DNA of 37,360 bases from an uncultured virus (IMG/VR IMGVR_UViG_3300047539_000004) (IMGVR_UViG_3300047539_000004), one strand, 5' to 3'; shown: positions 1-24,515, counted from the stretch's first letter. A program made the numbers and translations. The notes: generated from the sequence alone by a model not told the origin.

Positions 1-336
1 TGTATCTCCCGCAAATGCGTTAGAACCGCCGCCTGTAATTGTTCCGGTGAATACTGAATGAATTCCATCAGTAGAAGCAGCAACTGAAGTCAGCACTAAT
101 ACACCGACTGAAGAAGCAGCAACTGAAGTTAGAGCCAATGCTGAACCTGTGTCAACCACCGCGCCTGAAACATCGGCAACTACGGGGTCAAGTTGAAAAG
201 TCTCTGGGTAACCACCCACACCAGTCAATGACAACTTAACACCATTGTACCCCGGAGTTGTTTTGCCGGGATGAATGTTGCCAGTTGACAAAATCTGTGC
301 TGCTACGCCAAGACCTGTAGTAGAATTAAATGCCAT
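1..336 (-). CDS. Virion structural protein downstream of the capsid gene (partial, runs off the window)
   Basis: ATG at 336 after GGAGA; open frame to the window edge (MAFNSTTGLGVAAQILSTGNIHPG...); rich in Gly/Ser/Thr/Val with a repeated LTSVAAS; lies right after the capsid gene. Confidence 0.7.
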   Translation of the reverse strand, partial: MAFNSTTGLGVAAQILSTGNIHPGKTTPGYNGVKLSLTGVGGYPETFQLDPVVADVSGAVVDTGSALALTSVAASSVGVLVLTSVAASTDGIHSVFTGTITGGGSNAFAGDT

Positions 337-394
337 TTATTTTCTCCATAGACGTCAAAGGAGAGTTTTTAGGCTCTCCTTCGATCAATTTGAA

Positions 395-3300
395 TTAGCT
401 GATTGCGCTTGCGGCATCAATCTCACGGATTCTGATTGTTGTATCCTATTTGTTATCAATAACTTGCGTCATTGAGTTAGGTCATTTCTGCCTAACTCTC
501 ATGGTTTTTGTTCCCATGAGAACGGACTATCGCATCACCTTTCGGTGCCCTCTCACTTAGTCTCTCACGCTGCCTTTCGGCTTGCGCCCTGTTAGCCATT
601 TCAGCTTCCAAGTCAATCAGAGTGGGTTTATTACTCGCCCCAATACAATGTTTAGGGCCGAGCGAAGTTGTAAAATGAACTCTATCAATTTGTTATAATA
701 TTTCCCAAATCTTTGGCTAAAGTATATATTTCTTCAAGCCTTTGTAAAACAACTTCTTGTGGAAGCTGTTTACCGTATGCGCGAGTCATGCTAGCTTCCA
801 TCCAAGCTTTTAAAGTAAAGCTAGATTTGCTAGTCTGACATGATAAGAATCTGGTTTCTTCGTGTGTAGTGCAGCAAGGAACTAAGTTACCTTTTACATG
901 GCCTATAGAGGAATTTAATCTATCTAATCCCCATACTTTACCATCTTCAGGCTTTCGTCCACAATAAGCACACACTCTAGGGTTTCCTTCACTATCTAAA
1001 TAGTAAGGAATAGCTTCAACAGGACTTGTAAATCCAAATTCCCGTTTTTCAAGTTTATCAGTCCACTTCATACTAGCGTAACGTTTCCGTATGCTCTTAT
1101 AATAACCGTTCGACATGGATTTAGCTTTTAAAACGCCTTCCATACCTTCCCGGTTAAAGTGAACTAGTTTACCTTGTTTTCTCCATTTCGCAGCCCATTC
1201 TTGAATAGTACCGATAGTTACGCCGGTTCTAGTTTGAATCTCTTTTTGACTACGATTTTTAGAAAGAAGTTCGAATACTTTATCTTCAGTTTCTTTATCA
1301 ATTTTTATCATGCATACCTTAGGAGATATTAGATTGAGCATTTCTGTCAATCTCTTATAGTTTTATTCCTATAAGATCGGACTATTACTTCAGCCGTTTG
1401 GCTGTCTTCTTGTTTAGTCTCTCACGGCGAAAAGAATTTGTCAAGTCTTTTCTTCCGCCTCGTTGCCGTTTCAGGTTTCGAGTCGATTAAAGAAGATTAC
1501 TGATATCCTGTTTAAAGGGTCAGCCCATATATGATATTCTTATATCATGTAATGTTTAGGAAGTCCATCCGGGGATTAGCCCTTCGGGATCGGCAACTGT
1601 CGGTTCCTGTTATTTAGTTGCCTACAACTTCTGAGAACGCCAAACCTTTTAAAATCAATAACTTACCAGCGTTCTGAACGATATTGCACTTGATGTTGCT
1701 CCATTCACCGTCACCAAAACCTGTATCGCCTTGCGCACCGAGTTTGATAGAGAAAATACCATCACGCCCGAAGCTTGGATTGTTACTCGCTTTTTATAGC
1801 GGAGCAAGTCATTTCTGCTTGCTTCTTGGAGTTAAATTCTGTTATTAATTTGCAATGCTCTAGGAATGTAGTTTGTGAGTAGTTACTTTTGAATGAATTG
1901 CACACTCCGCAGCAAGCTACTGTATTCTCAGTTTGATAACCTTTTGCATTGTCTACTCTATCTACACCGTTATAGGTGTAACTATTTTGACTACCATAAC
2001 ATTTAGGTTTCAAAATCTGATAAGGTTCTTTACCACAATAAAAGCAAGTTTGTTTTGTAAGAATTTGAAATTCTTCAAAACTCAAAGAAAAACTGTATCC
2101 ACGTTTCTTTGCCAGAGACTTGTAAGTACCCCACAATGAACGTACCAGAGTTGTTTCATTTTTAGGTATGAGTCCAAGCTGATACCTGCAACCACAACTT
2201 TTACAGTGACCGTTCCGTAACGATGTTCCGGTCACCACAATGGTCTTTCCGCAGTCACACTGGCATATCCAACGTGCTCTATTTTTCTTTGAAATGCTTC
2301 TTTTTATGACTAAAAGACTGCTAAATCTTTTTCCCAATAAATCGTCTAATGGGCACTTTCCGCAGCTTTTGGTTGAACCGCCTACAAGATTGCTGTAAAA
2401 GAGTATGTGCTCATTTCCACAATCACACATACATTTCCACCTTGTTGAACCGTTTACAGTTCCTTCACAAGATATCGCAACAAGGCGACCGAATCGCCTG
2501 CCAACGAGGTTGGTCTTCATTTTTTCTCCAAGAACGGACTATCGCATCTTCCAAAGTCTTATTATACCACAATAAGAATAGGAAGTCAAATCGTTTAGTC
2601 TCTACTGCTGCACGGTTGCCCTGCTTGCAGTCTGTTCCCATTTCAGGGTTCAGCTTGATTAGATTTGATTTTCCGTATCAGCTTTCGTCTGATAGGACAC
2701 CTTAGTTGATGTAGGTACGTAGGGCTGTTAGACCAGTCACTGACTTGTAGTTAGGTGTCTGGGTAACTTGGTTTGTTTGGAAGAAACGTACACCTGAAGA
2801 TGGGAACTCAATCATTTCTGCAAGGTCCACAGAAATCAAATCTTCCATCTTTGCTTGACCTACTGGTGTATGCTTCAAAATGTCGATAACTGAATCATTG
2901 CTGTTGTCAGCAAGAACGTCACCGATTGCAAATGGGTGAATTACGCCAGCAAAAGTCTTGCTTGCTTCGTCAAAGGGGCGAACTGAACGACCTGCAAGGC
3001 TCTGTACTGAGTTACGAATCTGGTTAAGGCTCAGAGTTGTAAACGCAGTTAGTGATGTTGCACCTAGCTGTGTTAGAACACTTGCATCAACTGCATTCGC
3101 ACCGTCTGCTGTTGCACGAACTAGACCGCTTAGTGACTCACCAAGGCGATATGAAAGTTCGCGTGCTACATTCTCTACAGTGTTATCAATTGCGGTTGCA
3201 AGTGATAGTGAACTGAAATTAGCATAGTCCTAAGTTGTTTTGGGGTTGCTGTGTCACCACAGGGCCGCTCTCATGGTCACCCATGAGTTCAGACTCTATC

Positions 3301-4525
3301 TTCACAGAATTGTCTGTGCCTGACGTATTAGTCGTTACGGATTCACCGCGATTAAGGGCCTTATTTTTATCATAGAATTCTTTGCGCTTGGATGGGTTTT
3401 GCTCCCGTTCACAACGAATAAATTCTAAGGCGTTTAATGCCTGTTCGCGTTTAATGAGTAAATATGGAAGGATTCCTAGTAGAAAAACTTCTTGCGCCTT
3501 CACACCGCCTTTCGTAAACCACTGAAATACTGGTCTTCCGGGGTTAAGTGCTTGCTTTTTTTTATAAACAACACCGCCAAAATTCTCAACAAAAAAGTCC
3601 ATTAGTTTTTGTGATGTATTGGCAACTTGTATACGAAGCATATAGGCTTTGTATGTAGTTCCGGCGCTGGTTACATGATTTGCTGCGCCAATGCTAATGC
3701 AGCCCTCTGCATCAACCATAGCGGCAGCATAAATCCAGTTTTCTTTATTACTCATTTGTGTCTTTCCTCGGTATTGTCTGTATTATAACAGAGTTTCACC
3801 GATATAGTCAAGTTTTGATTAATGAGAACGCCAACTAATTGATACTAAAGCACTTAGCGTACTCTCCGATGGTTGCTGTCGTAGTTAAAACGTTAATTGA
3901 AATGCCACTACCAACTGTACCCTCAGTTGTCTGAGTAGTATTAGCTGCAAAAGGTACGTACATGAAAAGTTCGTACTGATTACCGCTCTTAGTTGGTAAA
4001 TCCAATCTCTCAGAACATGCTACGAAAGGTGTTTGTGCTTTCAGATTCTCTCTGAATTTCTTCAAATTTGTTACGTGTTTTCACACGGATTAGGCATTTC
4101 TGCTAATCTCATACAGTTGTTTTTCCTGTATGTTCGGACTATCGCATCACTTAAATGAGTCTACATAAGCTTTTTATCTTCAACAGTTATGCCATATTTA
4201 CGCATAAGATGTTGCGGCATATCTCGATGAGCTTCTCTATACTTTTTAGCATATTGACGCATCTTATCTCGATGTGCAGCCCTATAGTTTTTATGATATT
4301 CTTTTAGTTGTTCTGGTGTTCTCATTATTTGTGTTCTCTCGCTTAGTCTCTCACGCTGCCATTACGCTTGCGCCCTGTTAGCAGATATAATACTCATTAT
4401 ATCATATTTCAGCTTCCAAGTCAATAAGAGAGAATTTAACCACGACAAGATTATTTATCGTAGTAACGTACTGTTGACTGAGGTAAATTAGACTGACTAT
4501 TACTTGATGGACTATAACCTGCCAT
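395..4525 (-). CDS. Major capsid protein, N4-gp56-like, 344 aa; exons 4525-4457, 4062-3856, 3229-2709, 1773-1668, 1606-1558, 685-654, 445-395
   Basis: Exons sum to 1035 nt in one open frame: MAGYSPSS...VRYYD|KKFRENLKAQ...IGEYA|DYANFSSL...GVIHPF...LRTYI|FGRDG...VQNA|EPTVADPEGLIPGWTS|YRVHFTTSLGP|DTTIRIREIDAASAIS*. Every junction follows the group I rule (exon ends in U, intron ends in G). Located after portal and scaffold. Confidence 0.88.
446..653 (-). ncRNA. Group I intron 6 (208 nt, no ORF)
   Basis: P1: CUCGGCCCU pairs with GGGGCGAG; core motifs GCAGCGUGAGAGACUAAG and GAUGCGAUAGUCC; ends UAACAAAUAG. Confidence 0.92.
685..1311 (-). CDS. Intron-encoded HNH-type homing endonuclease with N-terminal HTH-like region
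   Basis: CAYCG...GLDRLNSSIGHVKGNLVPCC; likely start ATG 1311 after TAAGGT; the TGA stop overlaps the 3' splice site. Confidence 0.75.
   Translation of the reverse strand: MIKIDKETEDKVFELLSKNRSQKEIQTRTGVTIGTIQEWAAKWRKQGKLVHFNREGMEGVLKAKSMSNGYYKSIRKRYASMKWTDKLEKREFGFTSPVEAIPYYLDSEGNPRVCAYCGRKPEDGKVWGLDRLNSSIGHVKGNLVPCCTTHEETRFLSCQTSKSSFTLKAWMEASMTRAYGKQLPQEVVLQRLEEIYTLAKDLGNIITN
686..1557 (-). ncRNA. Group I intron 5 (872 nt) with endonuclease ORF in its 3' region
   Basis: Core GCCGUGAGAGACUAAAC ... GAAGUAAUAGUCCG; ends AUAACAAAUUG; removal rebuilds a T|AT Tyr codon. Its P1 looks short (CCU with GGG). Confidence 0.85.
1607..1667 (-). other. 61-nt core-less group I-like mini-intron (intervening sequence 4)
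   Basis: Contains an in-frame TAA and shifts the frame; guide GGUUUGGCGUUCU pairs over 13 nt with ligated exons AGAACGCU|GAACC; small hairpin AGUUG-UAGG-CAACU; ends AUAACAG; no catalytic core. Confidence 0.8.
1783..2520 (-). CDS. Intron-encoded HNH homing endonuclease
   Basis: Two N-terminal GxRFxxL...WxCxCDCG...KSCG repeats; C-terminal CFYCG...GVDRVDNAKGY...CCGVCNSFK; GGAGA RBS. Confidence 0.88.
   Translation of the reverse strand: MKTNLVGRRFGRLVAISCEGTVNGSTRWKCMCDCGNEHILFYSNLVGGSTKSCGKCPLDDLLGKRFSSLLVIKRSISKKNRARWICQCDCGKTIVVTGTSLRNGHCKSCGCRYQLGLIPKNETTLVRSLWGTYKSLAKKRGYSFSLSFEEFQILTKQTCFYCGKEPYQILKPKCYGSQNSYTYNGVDRVDNAKGYQTENTVACCGVCNSFKSNYSQTTFLEHCKLITEFNSKKQAEMTCSAIKSE
2561..2589 (-). 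promoter_or_regulatory. Sigma70-type promoter inside intron 3
   Basis: TTGACT-17-TATAAT with an extended TG motif, 40 nt upstream of the HNH ATG. Confidence 0.75.
3219..3755 (-). CDS. Single-motif LAGLIDADG homing endonuclease
   Basis: WIYAAAMVDAEGCISI motif and ILPYLLIKREQA helix; the ORF continues through the intron core and 11 nt into exon 3. Confidence 0.88.
   Translation of the reverse strand: MSNKENWIYAAAMVDAEGCISIGAANHVTSAGTTYKAYMLRIQVANTSQKLMDFFVENFGGVVYKKKQALNPGRPVFQWFTKGGVKAQEVFLLGILPYLLIKREQALNALEFIRCEREQNPSKRKEFYDKNKALNRGESVTTNTSGTDNSVKIESELMGDHESGPVVTQQPQNNLGLC
3230..3855 (-). ncRNA. Group I intron 2 (626 nt) with LAGLIDADG ORF
   Basis: P1: GAGUACGCU with GGCGUUCUC; core CCGUAACGACUAAU ... 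AAGAUAGAGUC; ends AAACAACUUAG. Confidence 0.9.
3782..3811 (-). promoter_or_regulatory. Sigma70-type promoter inside intron 2
   Basis: TTGACT-18-TATAAT with an extended TG motif, followed by GAGGA and ATG 3755. Confidence 0.72.
4161..4325 (-). pseudogene. Truncated endonuclease VII-like homing endonuclease (54 aa) in intron 1
   Basis: MRTPEQLKEYHKNYRAAHRDK...HLMRKYGITVEDKKLM*; the xxKYGIT segment resembles the region just before the EndoVII nuclease domain, which is absent here. Confidence 0.6.
4396..4424 (-). promoter_or_regulatory. Sigma70-type promoter inside intron 1
   Basis: TTGACT-17-TATAAT with an extended TG motif. Confidence 0.72.
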
Positions 4526-4608
4526 TTTAGTTTCCTGTTATATGGAAACCCGTATTATTTTCCTCCAAAACAAGTACAAGTTTCTGTCCTTGTACGTCAA
4601 TTACATCA

Positions 4609-4700
4609 GTTAGTAATCCGACTAACCTTCAATTGCCTTCAACTAAGACTTCAGTTAAAGTTACCTCACGCATTGGTGGTTCAACAGTAATCCGACTGTT
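4609..4700 (-). promoter_or_regulatory. Twin hairpins in the capsid gene leader
   Basis: AACAGU-CGGAUU-ACUGUU (4683-4700) and GUUAGU-CGGAUU-ACUAAC (4609-4626). Confidence 0.55.
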
Positions 4701-4704
4701 TCAC

Positions 4705-5154
4705 CTATAAATCTGACACTGGACGCGCACTTTTATACATGCACAACCCATGTCTACCGTTTCCGTACATGTTCTCGTCAACAAGCGTCACCCTATACCC
4801 CAAATCGAAGTATAGTTTTTGTGCCGGATTGTTGGCCTCTACCTGAAGCCAAAATAGGCTATTCTCAGGCTTTTGAAACTCTCCAAAAGTCTTTTCAAAC
4901 ACTTCGAAAAGCTTTGTGGCGATTCCTTGCTTTCTATGTGTATACAATACTGCTATATTATAGACATATGGTAATTCATGTTTAATCTTACCAATTAAAA
5001 ATCCAACTACTGTTCCGTTGTCTTCTGCTACCCAAGTTTGCCCTTTCTCTGCCTGTGACATAAGTAACAGTTCAGGAGTGGGCCATTCGTGTGATAATTG
5101 GTCGATTATAAAGATTTGCTTAAAGTCTTCGTCTGTATACTTGCGTATAAGCAT
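4705..5154 (-). CDS. GNAT (RimI-like) acetyltransferase
   Basis: IAVLYTHRKQGIAT acetyl-CoA motif A; LQVEANNPAQKLYFDLGY. Confidence 0.88.
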   Translation of the reverse strand: MLIRKYTDEDFKQIFIIDQLSHEWPTPELLLMSQAEKGQTWVAEDNGTVVGFLIGKIKHELPYVYNIAVLYTHRKQGIATKLFEVFEKTFGEFQKPENSLFWLQVEANNPAQKLYFDLGYRVTLVDENMYGNGRHGLCMYKSARPVSDL

Positions 5155-5155
5155 G

Positions 5156-6145
5156 TTACTGCCTTGGCTTTCTCGCGTCGGCCTCTAGCTTGTCTACCTT
5201 CTTACCGAAAGTGGGGTCTGTCAGAAGCAATCTCTTGTAATCATCGGATGGCATCGCATTGAGTGCAGCCAGTCCCGTTAAGACAGTCTTTGAACCGTCT
5301 GGTTGACGTAGCTCGTATACAATGTCGCTTCCGGCTCTAGGAGATGTGCCTACGTCTGAAGCACTCGCTCTGGTTAGCCCTGTGGCAACCCTTACGGCTA
5401 TCGGCTCGGTTACAGGAGTTGGTATAATGACTTCTACAGGAACTACAGGAACTACCGCAACCGGCTCTACAACAACTGGCACAGGTTCGTGGCGAGTTGG
5501 TGCTTCTACGATTGCGTCATGTAGTTTGAGCGTGTCATACGCCTTCTGAAAGTTACTTTTTACAGGAGCTAGATCGTATCTCAGCATCCAAGAAGTCATA
5601 GCTTCCCAGTTCTCTTTGCATTTAAAGTATTTGGGATTGTCAGCTACAAACGAATCGGCCTCAACCTTTGCGCGAAGTCTGATATTGTCTTGCTGTACAT
5701 CCCTGATTGTCTCTCCAAACTGCTTTAGCGACCCGCCAATAGAAGCTTCTAACAGTGTCGAAGTGGCCTCAAGTGCTGTAGTCGGGTCTAATAGCTTACG
5801 TGAAATGTCATAACGTTCATCATTCGTCAGTTCACGCGGCTTAAATTCGATTGGTGTAGGGAATCTTGGTGCCTCTTCTGGAATCGTTTCATTGTCCACA
5901 ATTCCCATTCTGTTCTTGCGTGTCTCACTTCTCAACTTACGGATAAGCAATACGTTCTGCTCTCGTAGTTTAGTTGCTAACTCTTCGTGAGTTCTATATT
6001 TGATTACCTGCAAGCCGCCTATCGGTCCCCCATTTTCATCTTCCGGCTGAAATTCGTACTTCAGTTCGGGCAACTCTGGTATAACTTCTACTACAGGAAC
6101 TTCTACAGGAACTACCTGCTCAATAACTTCGCTTACTTCACTCAT
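5156..6145 (-). CDS. Probable capsid scaffolding protein
   Basis: Sits between portal and capsid genes; acidic N-terminus, helical middle, Pro/Val linker. Confidence 0.6.
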   Translation of the reverse strand: MSEVSEVIEQVVPVEVPVVEVIPELPELKYEFQPEDENGGPIGGLQVIKYRTHEELATKLREQNVLLIRKLRSETRKNRMGIVDNETIPEEAPRFPTPIEFKPRELTNDERYDISRKLLDPTTALEATSTLLEASIGGSLKQFGETIRDVQQDNIRLRAKVEADSFVADNPKYFKCKENWEAMTSWMLRYDLAPVKSNFQKAYDTLKLHDAIVEAPTRHEPVPVVVEPVAVVPVVPVEVIIPTPVTEPIAVRVATGLTRASASDVGTSPRAGSDIVYELRQPDGSKTVLTGLAALNAMPSDDYKRLLLTDPTFGKKVDKLEADARKPRQ

Positions 6146-15034: not shown

Positions 15035-15109
<75 letters not shown>

Positions 15110-18206: not shown

Positions 18207-18740
18207 TTAGGAATTTACTTTTCTTACTTTTTTCCTCTTTATTTTCTGTGATTTAGGCACACTACGCGCCTTCTCCTCTACAGAAACCTGCTTTGCAGAT
18301 ACAACTACTACCTTCTCTTCTTTTGAAAATGGACTCTTAAAGCCCTTGATATAATAAGGACTTCTGTAAACCGGCTCAACCTTCTTCCTCTCATGCATCA
18401 ACACACGAACATCAAACTTATCGTGACAGGGTATACACAAAGGAACCAAATTACCGATAACGTTTGTTCCTCCACGGCATATGGGAACTACATGATGCCT
18501 GTGTTTAGCGAACGAATCACATAAATAACACTTTGTTGTCCCTGACCATAAATCTATCAAATCATTCGAAATCTCTTTAAAAGCATGTCTCATTATGATC
18601 ATGTCTATTTTAGATACCCAATTACCTTTTCGTAAACTACGCGTTAAGAAATCAAGTCTCTGACTCTTATGTATTGTATACAATGGACAGCCGACAAACA
18701 ACTCGCTTTCTGGTGTGTTTTCAGTAAGAACCTTCTCCAT
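18207..18740 (-). CDS. Free-standing HNH endonuclease
   Basis: CYLC...HHVVPICRGGTNVIGNLVPLCIPCH. Confidence 0.85.
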   Translation of the reverse strand: MEKVLTENTPESELFVGCPLYTIHKSQRLDFLTRSLRKGNWVSKIDMIIMRHAFKEISNDLIDLWSGTTKCYLCDSFAKHRHHVVPICRGGTNVIGNLVPLCIPCHDKFDVRVLMHERKKVEPVYRSPYYIKGFKSPFSKEEKVVVVSAKQVSVEEKARSVPKSQKIKRKKVRKVNS

Positions 18741-19218: not shown

Positions 19219-19656
19219 CTAAATATATTTTTGATACTTGGAAAGTGCGTCTGCAACCTTGTTATCGTCTCTAGGAACCCAATCGAAGAACAGGATTGCC
19301 CCAAGTTCCCTTAAAGTTCGTGCTTCAGTTACCGCAAACTCAGCGGCAGGATAGTAAAGTGACTCGGAATGAGCCTTTCTCTTCTTTTTCATAATGTTTA
19401 TGGCAAGAACTGAGTCTCCACGAACAAATATCTGAAACTTTTCAGTCTTATTTTGCTTTACTAGTTTGGTTATATACTCAAGACCTTTATATAGCCCGAA
19501 GAATTCTGCGTAGTTGTTCCCAAATCCTGTACCAATTTTACCGCCAGCAGCAATTTCTTCTTGGCCATCTTCTGTTATAATGAATGAGTAAGTTGCTGTA
19601 CCACCGGGGTTCTTTGGACCGCAACTGCCATCGAATGAAAGGATTAGATTTCTCAT
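19219..19656 (-). CDS. rnhA: Ribonuclease HI
   Basis: FDGSC, NNYAEF, RGDS, WVPRDDNKVADALS (DEDD motif). Confidence 0.9.
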   Translation of the reverse strand: MRNLILSFDGSCGPKNPGGTATYSFIITEDGQEEIAAGGKIGTGFGNNYAEFFGLYKGLEYITKLVKQNKTEKFQIFVRGDSVLAINIMKKKRKAHSESLYYPAAEFAVTEARTLRELGAILFFDWVPRDDNKVADALSKYQKYI

Positions 19657-19662
19657 GCTCTG

Positions 19663-19745
19663 ATCTTACCACATGTCTGTCAATTTGTCAAGGGAAAAAT
19701 TCAATATTTTTAAATCTTGACAAAGACACCCTTCTGTGGTATAGT
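19663..19745. promoter_or_regulatory. Back-to-back divergent promoters for RNase H and DNA polymerase
   Basis: Minus strand TTGACA-17-TAAGAT (19691-19663); plus strand TTGACA-17-TATAGT (19717-19745); each -10 box is 6 nt from an ATG. Confidence 0.8.
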
Positions 19746-19751
19746 AATTGG

Positions 19752-22301
19752 ATGGATGCAATCAGACAGCCTCTAGTACTTAACCCGCCTCCGAATATCA
19801 CAAGAGTTGTTGATATGGAAAGTTTGGACAAGCTTCTTGCCTTCTTGGAGAAGACTCCCGAATTCGGGTTCGACATTGAAACCACACCGACAAAGGACTA
19901 CTACTTCCGTAGAATCAGGACTTTACAGTTCGGCAACAATCAAGAGCAATACGTAATAGACCTACTTGCATGGTGTGATTACAACCCAGATGTATTGTAT
20001 GCGTGTCAAGGAGACTACGGCAAGGTTACGGCAATAGAGCCAAATATCGGAATGCTGGTTTCGAAGCTTTCTCCATATTTATCTTCCAACAAGTATCTCA
20101 AAGTGGGCGTGAACCTTGGTTTCGAGTATGAGTGTCTTTATTGGTTACTGGGGTTACGTACCTATGGTTACTATGACTGTATGCTTGCTGAGAAGTGTAT
20201 ATATGCCGGATTGGGTGGACACGCAAGCCTTAAGAACTACGGCTTCTATTCGATGGAAGATATGATGGACAGATACTTCCAAGTAATAATAGACAAGGAG
20301 TTGCAGACTTCGTTCAATCTTGACACGCTATTGACAGATGCTCAAGTAGAATATGCGGCACTCGACACAAGAACGCCACTTGCTATAAAGACTTTGCAGA
20401 GAGCCGTGGCCAATGGAACGACAGCGGAAAGCGCTCTGAAGAAAGGCAATCCCAAGCTAGCTAATTTTCTGTCCAAACTTAATCCTCTGATTCTTGGGGA
20501 CAACCTCAACAAGATTGTCGAGATTGAAAATAACGCACTGGGTAGCTTCGTTGATATGAAGGTTCACGGAGAGAACTTTGATTCAGTAAAATGGCTTGCG
20601 CGTGTAGCTGCTGAGACAGTAGAATATAAGAAACTTTTGGAGAAGTTGGATGAGTTCTTCTTACCTATCGTTGGCTCTAAGAATGAAAATATTAGCGATG
20701 CTGAAATTGCAAAACTCGAAGCTGAGTGGAAGTCGTACAACGAAGTTCCCGAAAAAGAAACCAACATGAAGAAAATGTTGCGTTTGGCTAAAAAAACCAA
20801 CGATGCTGACGGGATCGAAGCTGTTACGCATTTTCTTGAAGGAGCCGAAGCTTGGAGAAAAGAACAGAAAGAAGTATTGAAGAAAGTGTGCGGAGACGCA
20901 AAGAAAAAGAGAACGATCATTAACAAGCTGTTTGAGAAGTGTGAGGGAGAGGCGCTAATCAATTACGACTCAAGTTCACAGTTGCTCAAAATACTTAAGA
21001 CTAAGTATAAAGCTTTGGATACAGAAACCGGATTGGACGATGAAGTTCTTGAGAAACACATTCACATACCAATTATGAAGTTGATTCAGGATGCACACGG
21101 TCTGTCCAAGAAGTTAAGCACCTATGGAACCGCTTGGGGATACAAATGGAAGACGCATCCTTGCCTTGAGGAAGGTTGGTTACATCCCGGCGATGGAAGA
21201 CTTCATAGTGATTTTAACCAGTACGATGCGGAAACCGGGAGAAGCAGTTCGTCTAAACCAAACGGGCAAAACATCCCACACGTAGATGAAGTTCGCGCAT
21301 GTTGGGTTGCTGATGAACCGGACGAACACGGTGAGCGCATACTGATTACTATTGATATGTCTGGTGCAGAGCTACGCATCCTTACTGAAGAAGCTAAAGA
21401 CCCAATATGGATTAAAGCGTTTGCTGACAATGAAGATGTTCACTCGGTCTGTACAGAATTAGTTGAGGGAGAAGTGGTTTGGAAAAGCATGGCTCTCCCG
21501 GATTGTGCATACTTCAAACTAAAAGCAAATGGAGAACCACAGAGACACAAATGCAAGTGCCCGTTGCATAATGCAGCGCGTGACGGCATGAAGCCTACTA
21601 ATTTTGGTTTGCCATATGGGATTGGTCCCCGCAAACTGTCTATCCAGATTGGAAAAACGTTCAAAGATACTTGCGCTTTGATGGCGAAACACAAACAAGA
21701 GTTCCCGTACATTTGGGAATATCTTGCAGACTCTGGTAGCAAGTCTAAGATTCAGAAAAAGTCTTTCGATATGTTCGGTAGGAGAAGACTTTTCCCGGAG
21801 CCAACTTGGGAAGGCGCAAGAGAAAGATTCATCGAAGACTATGCCGACAAGCTACTTCTACCTGATGAAGATTGTGAGAAGACTCTAGAAGCCTTCTTAA
21901 CAATCAATGGGCGCAAACCAAACGTAGAAGAGAAGTACACACTGACCCATAGACAGCCGACACCCAAGGAGATTTCAAAGTCGTTCCAAGGGATGTTCGG
22001 GAACATGGAGCGTCAAGGCAAGAACCACAGGATTCAGTCTGCGAACGCTACGATTATTAAGTTAGCAATGGGAGCCGGGTATGACCCAGACGGCAAGCCT
22101 TATCTCTGGCACTTGTTCCCAAAATTCTTTGCGAGATTGCAGAAAATGGTTCACGATGAACTAGTGGTTTCTGTGCCCAAGATTTATGCAGAGGATTGCG
22201 CGAAGGCAATTCAGGATGCAATCCGCAGAGCCGCCGCAGAAAGAATGAAGTTAGTTGAGATGAAGTCTGAGTATCATATTGGAGGCGTATGGCAAAAGTA
22301 A
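19752..22301 (+). CDS. polA: Family A DNA polymerase with 3'-5' exonuclease, no 5'-3' exonuclease (849 aa)
   Basis: FDIET, YAALD, ETGRSSSSKPNGQNIP, motif A DMSGAELR, motif B KPTNFGLPYG, motif C VHDELV; start moved to ATG 19752. Confidence 0.93.
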   Translation: MDAIRQPLVLNPPPNITRVVDMESLDKLLAFLEKTPEFGFDIETTPTKDYYFRRIRTLQFGNNQEQYVIDLLAWCDYNPDVLYACQGDYGKVTAIEPNIGMLVSKLSPYLSSNKYLKVGVNLGFEYECLYWLLGLRTYGYYDCMLAEKCIYAGLGGHASLKNYGFYSMEDMMDRYFQVIIDKELQTSFNLDTLLTDAQVEYAALDTRTPLAIKTLQRAVANGTTAESALKKGNPKLANFLSKLNPLILGDNLNKIVEIENNALGSFVDMKVHGENFDSVKWLARVAAETVEYKKLLEKLDEFFLPIVGSKNENISDAEIAKLEAEWKSYNEVPEKETNMKKMLRLAKKTNDADGIEAVTHFLEGAEAWRKEQKEVLKKVCGDAKKKRTIINKLFEKCEGEALINYDSSSQLLKILKTKYKALDTETGLDDEVLEKHIHIPIMKLIQDAHGLSKKLSTYGTAWGYKWKTHPCLEEGWLHPGDGRLHSDFNQYDAETGRSSSSKPNGQNIPHVDEVRACWVADEPDEHGERILITIDMSGAELRILTEEAKDPIWIKAFADNEDVHSVCTELVEGEVVWKSMALPDCAYFKLKANGEPQRHKCKCPLHNAARDGMKPTNFGLPYGIGPRKLSIQIGKTFKDTCALMAKHKQEFPYIWEYLADSGSKSKIQKKSFDMFGRRRLFPEPTWEGARERFIEDYADKLLLPDEDCEKTLEAFLTINGRKPNVEEKYTLTHRQPTPKEISKSFQGMFGNMERQGKNHRIQSANATIIKLAMGAGYDPDGKPYLWHLFPKFFARLQKMVHDELVVSVPKIYAEDCAKAIQDAIRRAAAERMKLVEMKSEYHIGGVWQK

Positions 22302-23829: not shown

Positions 23830-24235
23830 CTAGCTGTAAGATAACGCTCGTGAAAAGACGTTATTATGATAGGCGCACAACACGCGGGTTCAAATCCCGC
23901 CGCGTCCACCACAGATAGCATTGGGTGTTTCGGAAGACCCTATAGCTGAACCGACAGCGTGCTATCTGTTGTGGGCGCGATCTGGGAATCGACTGGCGCA
24001 TTGTTGGGATAACGACGAGCAGGGACTGATGCTCACCTTAACGAGAGTCAAACACAGATGCGAACGATAGTTCAAATCTTATGGAACAGCGCTATCTTGC
24101 ACTTGGGAATGCCTTAGCGGGTGGACTCAGTGTTGATGGTCTTCAGAATACCGAAGTTGCTATTCCAGAACTAATTGCAGCCTAAAAACTGTGGATACGC
24201 GCTGCCCTTTTGCGTGGGAACAGAAAAAGGGGCAA
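23830..24235 (+). ncRNA. ssrA: Circularly permuted (two-piece) tmRNA; outer ends approximate
   Basis: T-arm and CGCGTCC-ACCA end at 23911, upstream of the 5' acceptor strand GGGCGCG (23973-23979); G3:U70 pair; tag frame 24060-24185 starts AND and ends LIAA*. Confidence 0.88.
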
Positions 24236-24437: not shown

Positions 24438-24515
24438 CGGTGTATAGCTCAGTCTGGACAGAGCATTCCGTTTGGGGCGGAAGGGCCAGAGGTTCGAATC
24501 CTTTTACGCCGACCA
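24438..24515 (+). tRNA. tRNA-Pro(TGG)
   Basis: Acceptor CGGTGTA/TACGCCG-ACCA; anticodon arm TTCCG-TTTGGGG-CGGAA. Confidence 0.92.

Follow-up and report, generated by a model that had tools for sequence, protein, structure and literature searches.

Group I introns are reportedly present in td, nrdB and sunY of phage T4 and, three in number, in orf142 of phage Twort. Introns within capsid genes have been reported for mycobacteriophage LittleE and lactococcal phage Tuc2009 (PMC3706429), and another study describes a major capsid protein (MCP) gene in crAss-like phages of the Zeta group that is split into five fragments (PMC7886860). The DNA analysed here, a stretch of 37,360 nucleotides (nt) from an uncultured virus (IMG/VR IMGVR_UViG_3300047539_000004) which is referred to throughout as the window, was found to possess a capsid gene on the minus strand (4525-395) in which 1035 coding nt are spread over 4131 nt. 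Unlike the crAss-like MCP gene, for which four interruptions are described, this gene has six. Capsid-gene introns and phage genes with several introns are already known (PMC3706429; PMC7886860); for the layout of the mini-introns of this phage group and their proposed dependence on a helper intron, no earlier description was found in the literature searched.

Five of the six interruptions (introns I1, I2, I3, I5 and I6) resemble other phage group I introns in that the 5' cut follows a U and the last base is G, in a guide forming the helices P1 and P10, and in a P3-P9 core with a P7 pseudoknot. They are also alike in occupying a conserved, highly expressed gene and, in some of the five, in open reading frames (ORFs) of HNH-like or LAGLIDADG-like type in peripheral loops. 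Unlike known phage group I introns, the family escapes the Rfam model, and one of the six, the 61-nt I4, is without a core.

Small degenerate group I introns of 56-81 nt have been described from the ribosomal DNA (rDNA) of Phialophora (PaSSU; PMC3160393), and catalytically impaired group I introns from lichen rDNA (PMC8527467). The phage mini-introns (I4 and its counterparts in relatives) share with the fungal ones a length of tens of nt, P1, P10, a pairing of the intron's middle with the 3' exon, removal in vivo, and a probable origin by deletion from full-size introns. The fungal introns, as portrayed there, possess their own P7, end in U, lie in ribosomal RNA at one main site, and are claimed either to be self-splicing or to use host machinery. 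The phage mini-introns, in contrast, end in G, go down to 34 nt without P7, and lie in messenger RNA at six sites; a full-size intron always follows them, and their tail abuts the P1 of that intron. A literature search on core-less or helper-dependent group I introns found the fungal degenerate ones, with no phage case and no helper model.

Six RNA-level excisions in the capsid gene

The capsid gene requires six RNA-level excisions, all of which are visible in RNA contigs; the most abundant structural protein of a phage depends on six RNA excisions that can be seen in environmental RNA. When the major head protein of Tunturiibacter phage Tunturi_3 was compared by tblastn with positions 1-5200 of the window, seven collinear pieces covered its 343 amino acids (aa) from end to end, and the joined exons contain no internal stop. 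The gene is organised as follows (base pairs, bp).

Exon 1: 4525-4457, minus strand, 69 nt, ATG at 4525; tblastn match to aa 2-23; RNA joint 4060>4455 with a slide of 2
Intron 1 (I1): 4456-4063, minus strand, 394 nt; group I, core split by an ORF; P1 8 bp, P10 4 bp
Exon 2: 4062-3856, minus strand, 207 nt; tblastn match to aa 23-91, 84% identity
Intron 2 (I2): 3855-3230, minus strand, 626 nt; group I, second subtype; P1 5 bp, P10 5 bp
Exon 3: 3229-2709, minus strand, 521 nt; tblastn match to aa 92-265, 84.5% identity, E 1e-95
Intron 3 (I3): 2708-1774, minus strand, 935 nt; group I with HNH ORF; P1 4 bp, P10 3 bp
Exon 4: 1773-1668, minus strand, 106 nt; tblastn match to aa 266-300, 91% identity
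Intron 4 (I4): 1667-1607, minus strand, 61 nt; core-less mini-intron; P1 8 bp, P10 5 bp
Exon 5: 1606-1558, minus strand, 49 nt; 16 of 16 residues identical to Tunturi_3
Intron 5 (I5): 1557-686, minus strand, 872 nt; group I with endonuclease VII/HNH-like ORF; P1 3 bp, P10 3 bp
Exon 6: 685-654, minus strand, 32 nt; 10 of 10 residues identical to Tunturi_3
Intron 6 (I6): 653-446, minus strand, 208 nt; ORF-less group I; P1 5 bp, P10 7 bp
Exon 7: 445-395, minus strand, 51 nt, TAA at 397-395; 16 of 16 residues identical to Tunturi_3

The initial annotation had read the locus as an MCP gene with exons of 69, 207, 521, 106, 49, 32 and 51 nt (1035 nt over 4131 nt), and these sizes proved exact on tblastn refinement; the spliced product runs end to end with a capsid protein. 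The identification of the interrupted gene as the major capsid gene is upheld because gene order, identity to an annotated protein and a family match of a relative agree. When the largest open stretch (3229-2708) was used in a protein search, one phage record was matched, that of Tunturi_3 (genome of 97.6 kilobases, kb; host an acidobacterium), whose uninterrupted gp6, annotated as 'major head protein', has 84.5% identity to the product of this stretch and lies in the same gene order. The capsid protein of an uninterrupted relative matches PHROG 1357 'major head protein' (E 7e-17), and the Atlas clusters closest to it represent capsid families (scores 0.97-0.98). A Pfam search of the capsid protein gave no match and a PDB profile search a single weak one (E 0.078). 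The AlphaFold2 model, built from 15 close homologues, had a mean pLDDT of 30, so that an HK97-type fold is not shown by the model.

Excision was examined in assembled contigs (not reads) of three metatranscriptome runs from three studies and of one DNA run; the stretch itself is present in 20 public peat and permafrost runs, six of them metatranscriptomes. Joints skipping 208 (I6), 872 (I5), 61 (I4), 935 (I3) and 394 nt (I1) were identified in all three RNA runs and the I2 joint (3229>3856, skipping 626 nt) in one of the three, so that each junction which the initial annotation had proposed to seek in RNA was found. Each of these joints lies at the predicted boundary with a slide of 0-2 nt, and the joints fall at the terminal-G positions of the introns. 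The joint across I4 (1605>1667) was seen in three of three RNA runs and zero of one DNA run; the latter contained none of the six joints, its contigs being continuous through the interruptions. A single 764-nt RNA contig joins exons 7-6-5-4-3.

Contigs of two RNA runs retain I2 between exons 2 and 3 with I1 and I3 already removed. They are the sole hint on the earlier idea that the splicing events delay virion assembly, and contigs cannot measure rates. The third RNA run contained a variant of I2 in which 3344-3760, most of the endonuclease ORF, is swapped for 13 other letters, and an ORF-less form of I2 is therefore also present in that run. Group I introns circularise with the 3' end joined a few nt inside the 5' end, and a circular-type contig of 962 nt (932 nt plus a 30-nt overlap) from RNA run X15 looks like such a circle of the 935-nt I3: it covers 1774-2705 and joins the intron's 3' end to approximately its fourth base, i.e., with some 3 nt lost at the 5' end. 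Three further joints (350>1560; 1603>1681, where 16 other letters are inserted; and 1603>4088) are thinly covered, with little sequence on their sides, and were set aside as sequences of relatives or chimeras, not splice products.

At each of the six interruptions the last base of the 5' exon is T (U) and the last base of the insert is G. In each interruption a guide pairs with the exon end (P1, with G.U at the cut) and, directly 5' of this, with the start of the next exon (P10). The numbers of shuffles reaching the observed P1/P10 pairing, from 2000, were 2 for I1, 8 for I2, 25 for I3, 39 for I5 and 0 for I6, the pairings of I5 and I3 being weak. The fold of I6 has an energy of -76.8 kcal/mol (z -5.66 against shuffles) and the order P1, P3, P4-P6, P7, P3', P8, P7', P9. 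An alignment of I6 with 24 ORF-less introns of 196-229 nt from other sites in relatives (25 sequences) was analysed with RNAalifold, which yielded P3, P4, P5, P6, P8, P9 and P9.1, 33 of the 40 pairs showing compensatory changes. With the P7 pseudoknot (P3/P7) added there are 46 pairs, of which 34 change on both sides; 96.5% of the cells are paired, compared with 30-38% when the partners are slid, and 0 of 500 shuffles reached the observed values. The profile of this core, which includes P7, gave the following matches.

I6: E 4e-46
I5: 1498-1331, minus strand, E 4e-32
I1, two halves around its ORF: 4440-4328, minus strand, E 3e-19, and 4164-4066, minus strand, E 8e-19
I3, two halves: 2672-2520, minus strand, E 3e-14, and 1839-1780, minus strand, E 1e-5
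I2, weak: 3346-3268, minus strand, E 2e-4

The rest of the 37-kb window, I4 included, gave nothing better than E 0.7. P7 motifs had been noted earlier in five introns, and the profile agrees, with five of the six matched and the 61-nt one unmatched. I1, I2, I3, I5 and I6 thus belong to a single phage family of group I introns whose core covaries, and the best explanation, to which we attach a fair measure of confidence, is that they are self-splicing. Four of them contain ORFs.

I1 ORF: 4325-4161, minus strand, 54 aa; no family match, splits the I1 core
I2 ORF: 3755-3219, minus strand, LAGLIDADG-like; PHROG 5046, E 2e-14; extends 11 nt into exon 3
I3 ORF: 2520-1783, minus strand, HNH endonuclease; PHROG 374 HNH, E 5e-25
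I5 ORF: 1350 or 1341 to 685, minus strand, endonuclease VII/HNH-like with a helix-turn-helix; PHROG 1035 endonuclease VII, E 2e-8

The I2 ORF found only LAGLIDADG_1 in Pfam, at an E of 0.012 that is below the cut-off, and had no Pfam HNH match. These family matches are best explained by I2, I3 and I5 carrying homing-endonuclease genes, which appears probable. The I5 endonuclease ORF probably starts at an ATG that falls within the loop motif, invariant in this intron family, of the P9.1 hairpin (window 1346-1339).

The capsid gene of this phage group is an intron hotspot. Among 162 capsid loci, drawn from IMG/VR and metagenome contigs (duplicates between the collections included) together with L001 and the window, 63 are interrupted, with 126 interruptions (85 distinct) at more than 20 sites. 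At two places where L057/L114 have full-size introns, a 27.8-kb contig (L115) matches the joined junction at 100%, and an intron-less twin of an intron-bearing relative thus exists.

The 61-nt intron 4 and mini-introns in relatives

The guide of I4 lies at 1646-1634, where 1646-1642 pairs with the start of exon 5 (P10, 5 bp) and 1641-1634 with the end of exon 4 (P1, 8 bp), a combination matched by 0 of 2000 shuffles. There is a U before the 5' splice site, a G.U at the cut and a terminal G at 1607. Following the guide, 27 nt are left, 16 of them paired with exons 6 and 5; because only these 27 nt follow and the core profile is unmatched, I4 is taken to have no core of its own. It acts like a group I substrate and not like a complete group I ribozyme. 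The six splicing events of the initial annotation accordingly stand as six excisions at the RNA level, with the correction that the 61-nt interruption is no self-contained group I intron and retains recognition parts only.

The tail of I4 (1631-1621, the anchor strand) pairs with 674-664 in exon 6, which ranks first among 1714 windows, and in a composite fold with I5 spliced out the anchor has pair probabilities of 0.91-1.0 over 9 bp. The exon 6 target adjoins 663-654, the 10-nt exon strand of the P1 of I6, with 0 unpaired nt between the two. A 7-bp helix between I4 (1622-1616) and exon 5 (1598-1592) encloses the 3' splice site within a loop of 17 nt. The same I4 was found in a second, independent assembly (L082) with 1 difference in 4196 nt.

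A spliceosomal-looking GTAAGT...CAG occurs in I4; excision of a 60-nt GT..AG unit breaks the frame, and the resemblance was treated as a coincidence. The leader of I4 (1664-1654) has an 11-nt identity with the 3' strand of the last hairpin of I6 (465-455), which could be common descent or a second contact with I6. A 12-nt identity around the guide links I2 (3834-3823) and I4 (1643-1632), and the last five bases of their 5' exons are identical; the 5' half of I4 may be related to I2, or a guide may have been duplicated at another site of similar sequence. In one relative an interruption of also 61 nt (L036:5501-5561) lies 21 nt further along the gene, with the same anchor motif and a guide that fits its own exon ends, as if retargeted.

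Altogether, 16 distinct mini-interruptions of 34-97 nt were identified, 15 at five sites in relatives plus I4. With the window included they occupy six sites (nt 60, 156, 900, 906, 921 and 940), those labelled nt 928 and nt 940 being counted as one since they split the same Trp codon. A 20-nt 'interruption' in L149 is a local frame disturbance between two matches and no intron, and was excluded before the counts. In the guide test on 15 mini-introns, where the 77-nt one common to L143 and L154 was scored once, all 15 were cut after a U at the 5' side, ended in G and had a P10+P1 guide without a gap, with a shuffle p <= 0.0075 each. Their P1 has 6-12 bp and their P10 4-8 bp, and the guides vary in step with the exon sequences. 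The mini-introns look like deletion derivatives of full-size introns, because the one at nt 156 has its 5' end, up to the guide, in common with the full-size introns of that site. The longest two, the 97-nt one at nt 940 (L151) and L071:776-869, have an extra long hairpin whose inner stem differs by paired changes, which suggests a conserved structural add-on. A search for joined junctions among the fetched contigs matched 10 of 124 probes, none from a mini-intron.

Downstream of the mini-introns, at a distance of 26-120 exon nt, a full-size intron is present in 18 of 18 contexts, compared with 8 of 71 for full-size introns (Fisher 5e-13; association window of 125 exon nt). Upstream, the corresponding values are 4 of 18 and 8 of 71 (p 0.25). 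Two of the downstream introns (L145 and L035) were missed by the pipeline and added by hand, that of L145 being confirmed by the core profile (E 3.5e-43).

In most mini-introns the tail behind the guide pairs with an anchor, the exon bases immediately before the 5' splice site of the full-size intron that follows. Compared with shuffled tails, the duplexes between tail and exon gave, for 13 groups, a Fisher combined p of 4e-11. When approximately 800-1700 windows were ranked as partners, the anchor window came first in 7 of 15 cases and had a rank of 8 or better in 10 of 15. Of 13 cases evaluated, 10 have an anchor whose exon strand stops no more than 2 nt away from that of the following intron's P1. 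The anchor shifts with the proposed helper, over six helper sites and mini-exon lengths of 26-120 nt, and it covaries with silent codon changes at Thr-Thr-Ser in exon 6. On this comparative footing we lean towards a natural family of core-less group I hitch-hikers of 34-97 nt, in which one ribozyme would splice two introns.

A proposed helper mechanism and its rivals

The reading that we regard as probable is that I4 is a core-less 'hitch-hiker' intron which is spliced by the ribozyme of the downstream intron, I6. Transcription of the MCP gene would give a precursor of 4.1 kb, and the six intervening sequences are taken out of this RNA. I4 would supply the substrate side, namely P1 with its G.U, P10 and the terminal G, while the anchor helix, stacked on the P1 of I6 along the shared exon strand, would hold the P1/P10 of I4 next to the I6 core, which would perform both transesterifications on I4. 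The likely order of splicing is I5, then I4, then I6, I5 being placed first because its 872 nt separate I4 from its anchor.

Parts of such an arrangement are known from other systems. Group III introns of Euglena plastids are degenerate group II introns of ~100 nt that are thought to depend on trans-acting parts; they are likewise stripped to the parts that recognise the splice sites, with catalysis from outside, but differ in chemistry (group II lariat as opposed to group I guanosine) and host and lack both a defined helper and an anchor helix. In engineered group I ribozymes that splice in trans there is an extended guide and an extra helix beside P1, which tethers the substrate and raises efficiency, and this is the role proposed here for the anchor. 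Those ribozymes are man-made and carry the guide themselves, whereas here the guide would be on the core-less intron and the tether would be the shared exon strand. If true, I4 and I6 would be the first natural case known to us of a group I ribozyme acting on a second, core-less intron. Spliceosomal introns have long been proposed to originate from self-splicing ones by a handing-over of catalysis, and the phage introns would, on the same proviso, be a group I example of catalysis handed to another RNA and a testable model of catalyst loss. The mini-introns may also keep the homing site disrupted and so provide immunity to the intron endonuclease at a cost of 34-97 nt.

The main rival is autonomy with help from the exon context: the mini-introns would be minimal group I introns that fold with the flanking exon through P1, P10 and a 'PM'-type pairing with the 3' exon. 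PaSSU is a precedent with the same parts list including the pairing of intron middle and 3' exon (PMC3160393), and the orphan mini-intron of L043/L106 has a helix between tail and 3' exon with no adjacent intron. In the members of 34-40 nt, however, the 18-23 nt after the guide are mostly anchor and leave no room for a P7 G-binding helix, and by eye the terminal G is the sole feature common to all mini-introns. Since autonomy also leaves unexplained both the one-sided downstream association (18 of 18 vs 8 of 71) and the anchor abutting the next intron's P1, we hold it to be unlikely. Somewhat less likely still is splicing in trans by any group I ribozyme in the cell, whether excised I1-I6 or encoded elsewhere, or by a protein factor, with the helix merely aiding folding or preventing mis-splicing. 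Group I cores recognise P1 mainly by shape, five full cores are produced from the same precursor, and L043/L106 is without an adjacent helper, all of which suits this explanation; it does not account for a full-size intron always lying 26-120 nt downstream and not upstream, or for an anchor within 2 nt of the downstream intron's P1 in 10 of 13 cases.

That no splicing is involved, the joints being co-occurring intron-less variants or assembly artefacts and the 61-nt gap being crossed by ribosomal bypassing or frameshifting, seems highly improbable. Contigs and not reads were compared, the comparison did not report on joined forms in other DNA runs, and an intron-less twin is on hand for another relative (L115 against L057/L114, 100%). 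Against this, the six joints coincide precisely with U|...G| boundaries and were seen in three RNA runs, each from a different study, and in zero of one DNA run, and mixed forms (I2 kept, I1 and I3 removed) and the circle junction of I3 are present in RNA. Both frames are stopped within the 61 nt: the frame of exon 4 meets a stop 20 codons in, and that of exon 5 has one a single codon before exon 5, by which frameshifting was rejected. Phage T4 gene 60 is translated by bypassing a gap of 50 nt, and the capsid gene resembles it in being a phage gene with a short non-coding gap, in surroundings where homing endonucleases abound. Unlike in gene 60, the gap is gone from RNA, the codons on its two sides are no matching pair for take-off and landing, and no stop directly follows the take-off; bypass was rejected on the first two grounds.

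Several observations weigh against splicing of I4 by I6, or against the group I assignment on which it builds. Its excision is tied to I6 by comparative evidence, and the RNA evidence consists of assembled contigs, from which rates, order and absence are not readable; the DNA control is a single run from another sample. In the precursor, 921 nt including I5 lie between I4 and its anchor, and a weaker 6-bp pairing places I4 beside the 5' splice site and short P1 of I5, which could be an alternative helper. In the window, I5 or I3 could still be the required helper; in relatives the association is with downstream introns alone. The anchor of L043 is at chance (p 0.76, rank 124), and those of L077 (p 0.16, rank 365), L151 (p 0.15, rank 87), L143 (p 0.12, rank 8) and L150 (p 0.054, rank 38) are weak; that of L035 (p 0.010, rank 21), whose downstream intron is itself inferred, the contig ending 94 nt after the mini-intron, is likewise not significant by itself. 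L043:4855-4894 (= L106) is the orphan, a mini-intron of 40 nt with no intron beside the anchor place; its tail pairs at the position used as anchor in relatives (the L077 group), and 101 nt separate it from the next intron. A fungal group I intron of 67 nt is also reported to be self-splicing in vitro (PMC3160393).

Finally, the Rfam group I model RF00028 matched none of the interruptions, with the window searched at the gathering threshold and 1-5200 and 380-720 at E <= 10; the rows obtained were the chance matches U1A_PIE and Afu_199, tRNAs and a tmRNA-like match. As structure and splicing were shown otherwise, this is read as the limited reach of RF00028. The Infernal check suggested in the initial annotation therefore failed at all six interruptions, and the core was shown by the family alignment and profile in its place. 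Gene callers and Rfam miss full-size and mini-introns alike, and the capsid genes of such phages are consequently mis-annotated as fragments or frameshifts.

Neighbouring genes and other features of the window

Over its first 19 kb, the window has genes on the minus strand only. The genes beyond the capsid gene include the following.

11189-9144, minus strand: terL, single ORF without a core-profile match
8832-6712, minus strand: portal, single ORF without a core-profile match
Between the portal and the scaffold-like ORF, minus strand: two small ORFs
6145-5156, minus strand: scaffold-like ORF
5154-4705, minus strand: GNAT acetyltransferase
19584-22301: DNA polymerase, single ORF without a core-profile match
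18207-18740, minus strand: free-standing HNH endonuclease ORF (PHROG 6050, E 1.5e-8), outside any recognised intron

The absence of introns from the neighbouring terL, portal and polA genes, noted previously, is borne out by these single ORFs. The window is best explained as part of a Tunturi_3-like phage of roughly 98 kb from peat and soil, with the capsid gene as its sole MCP gene, an interpretation that is reasonably well favoured.

A permuted two-piece tmRNA was matched by Rfam at 23846-24185 on the plus strand (58.2 bits against a gathering score of 47, E 6e-9) in otherwise phage-like DNA, and ARAGORN called no tmRNA. Genes for tRNAs were found at 24438, 25353, 25471 and 27822 on the plus strand and at 15038 on the minus strand. 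The tmRNA-like match lies beside the tRNA cluster (Pro, Val, Leu, Ser), with the Asn tRNA located elsewhere.

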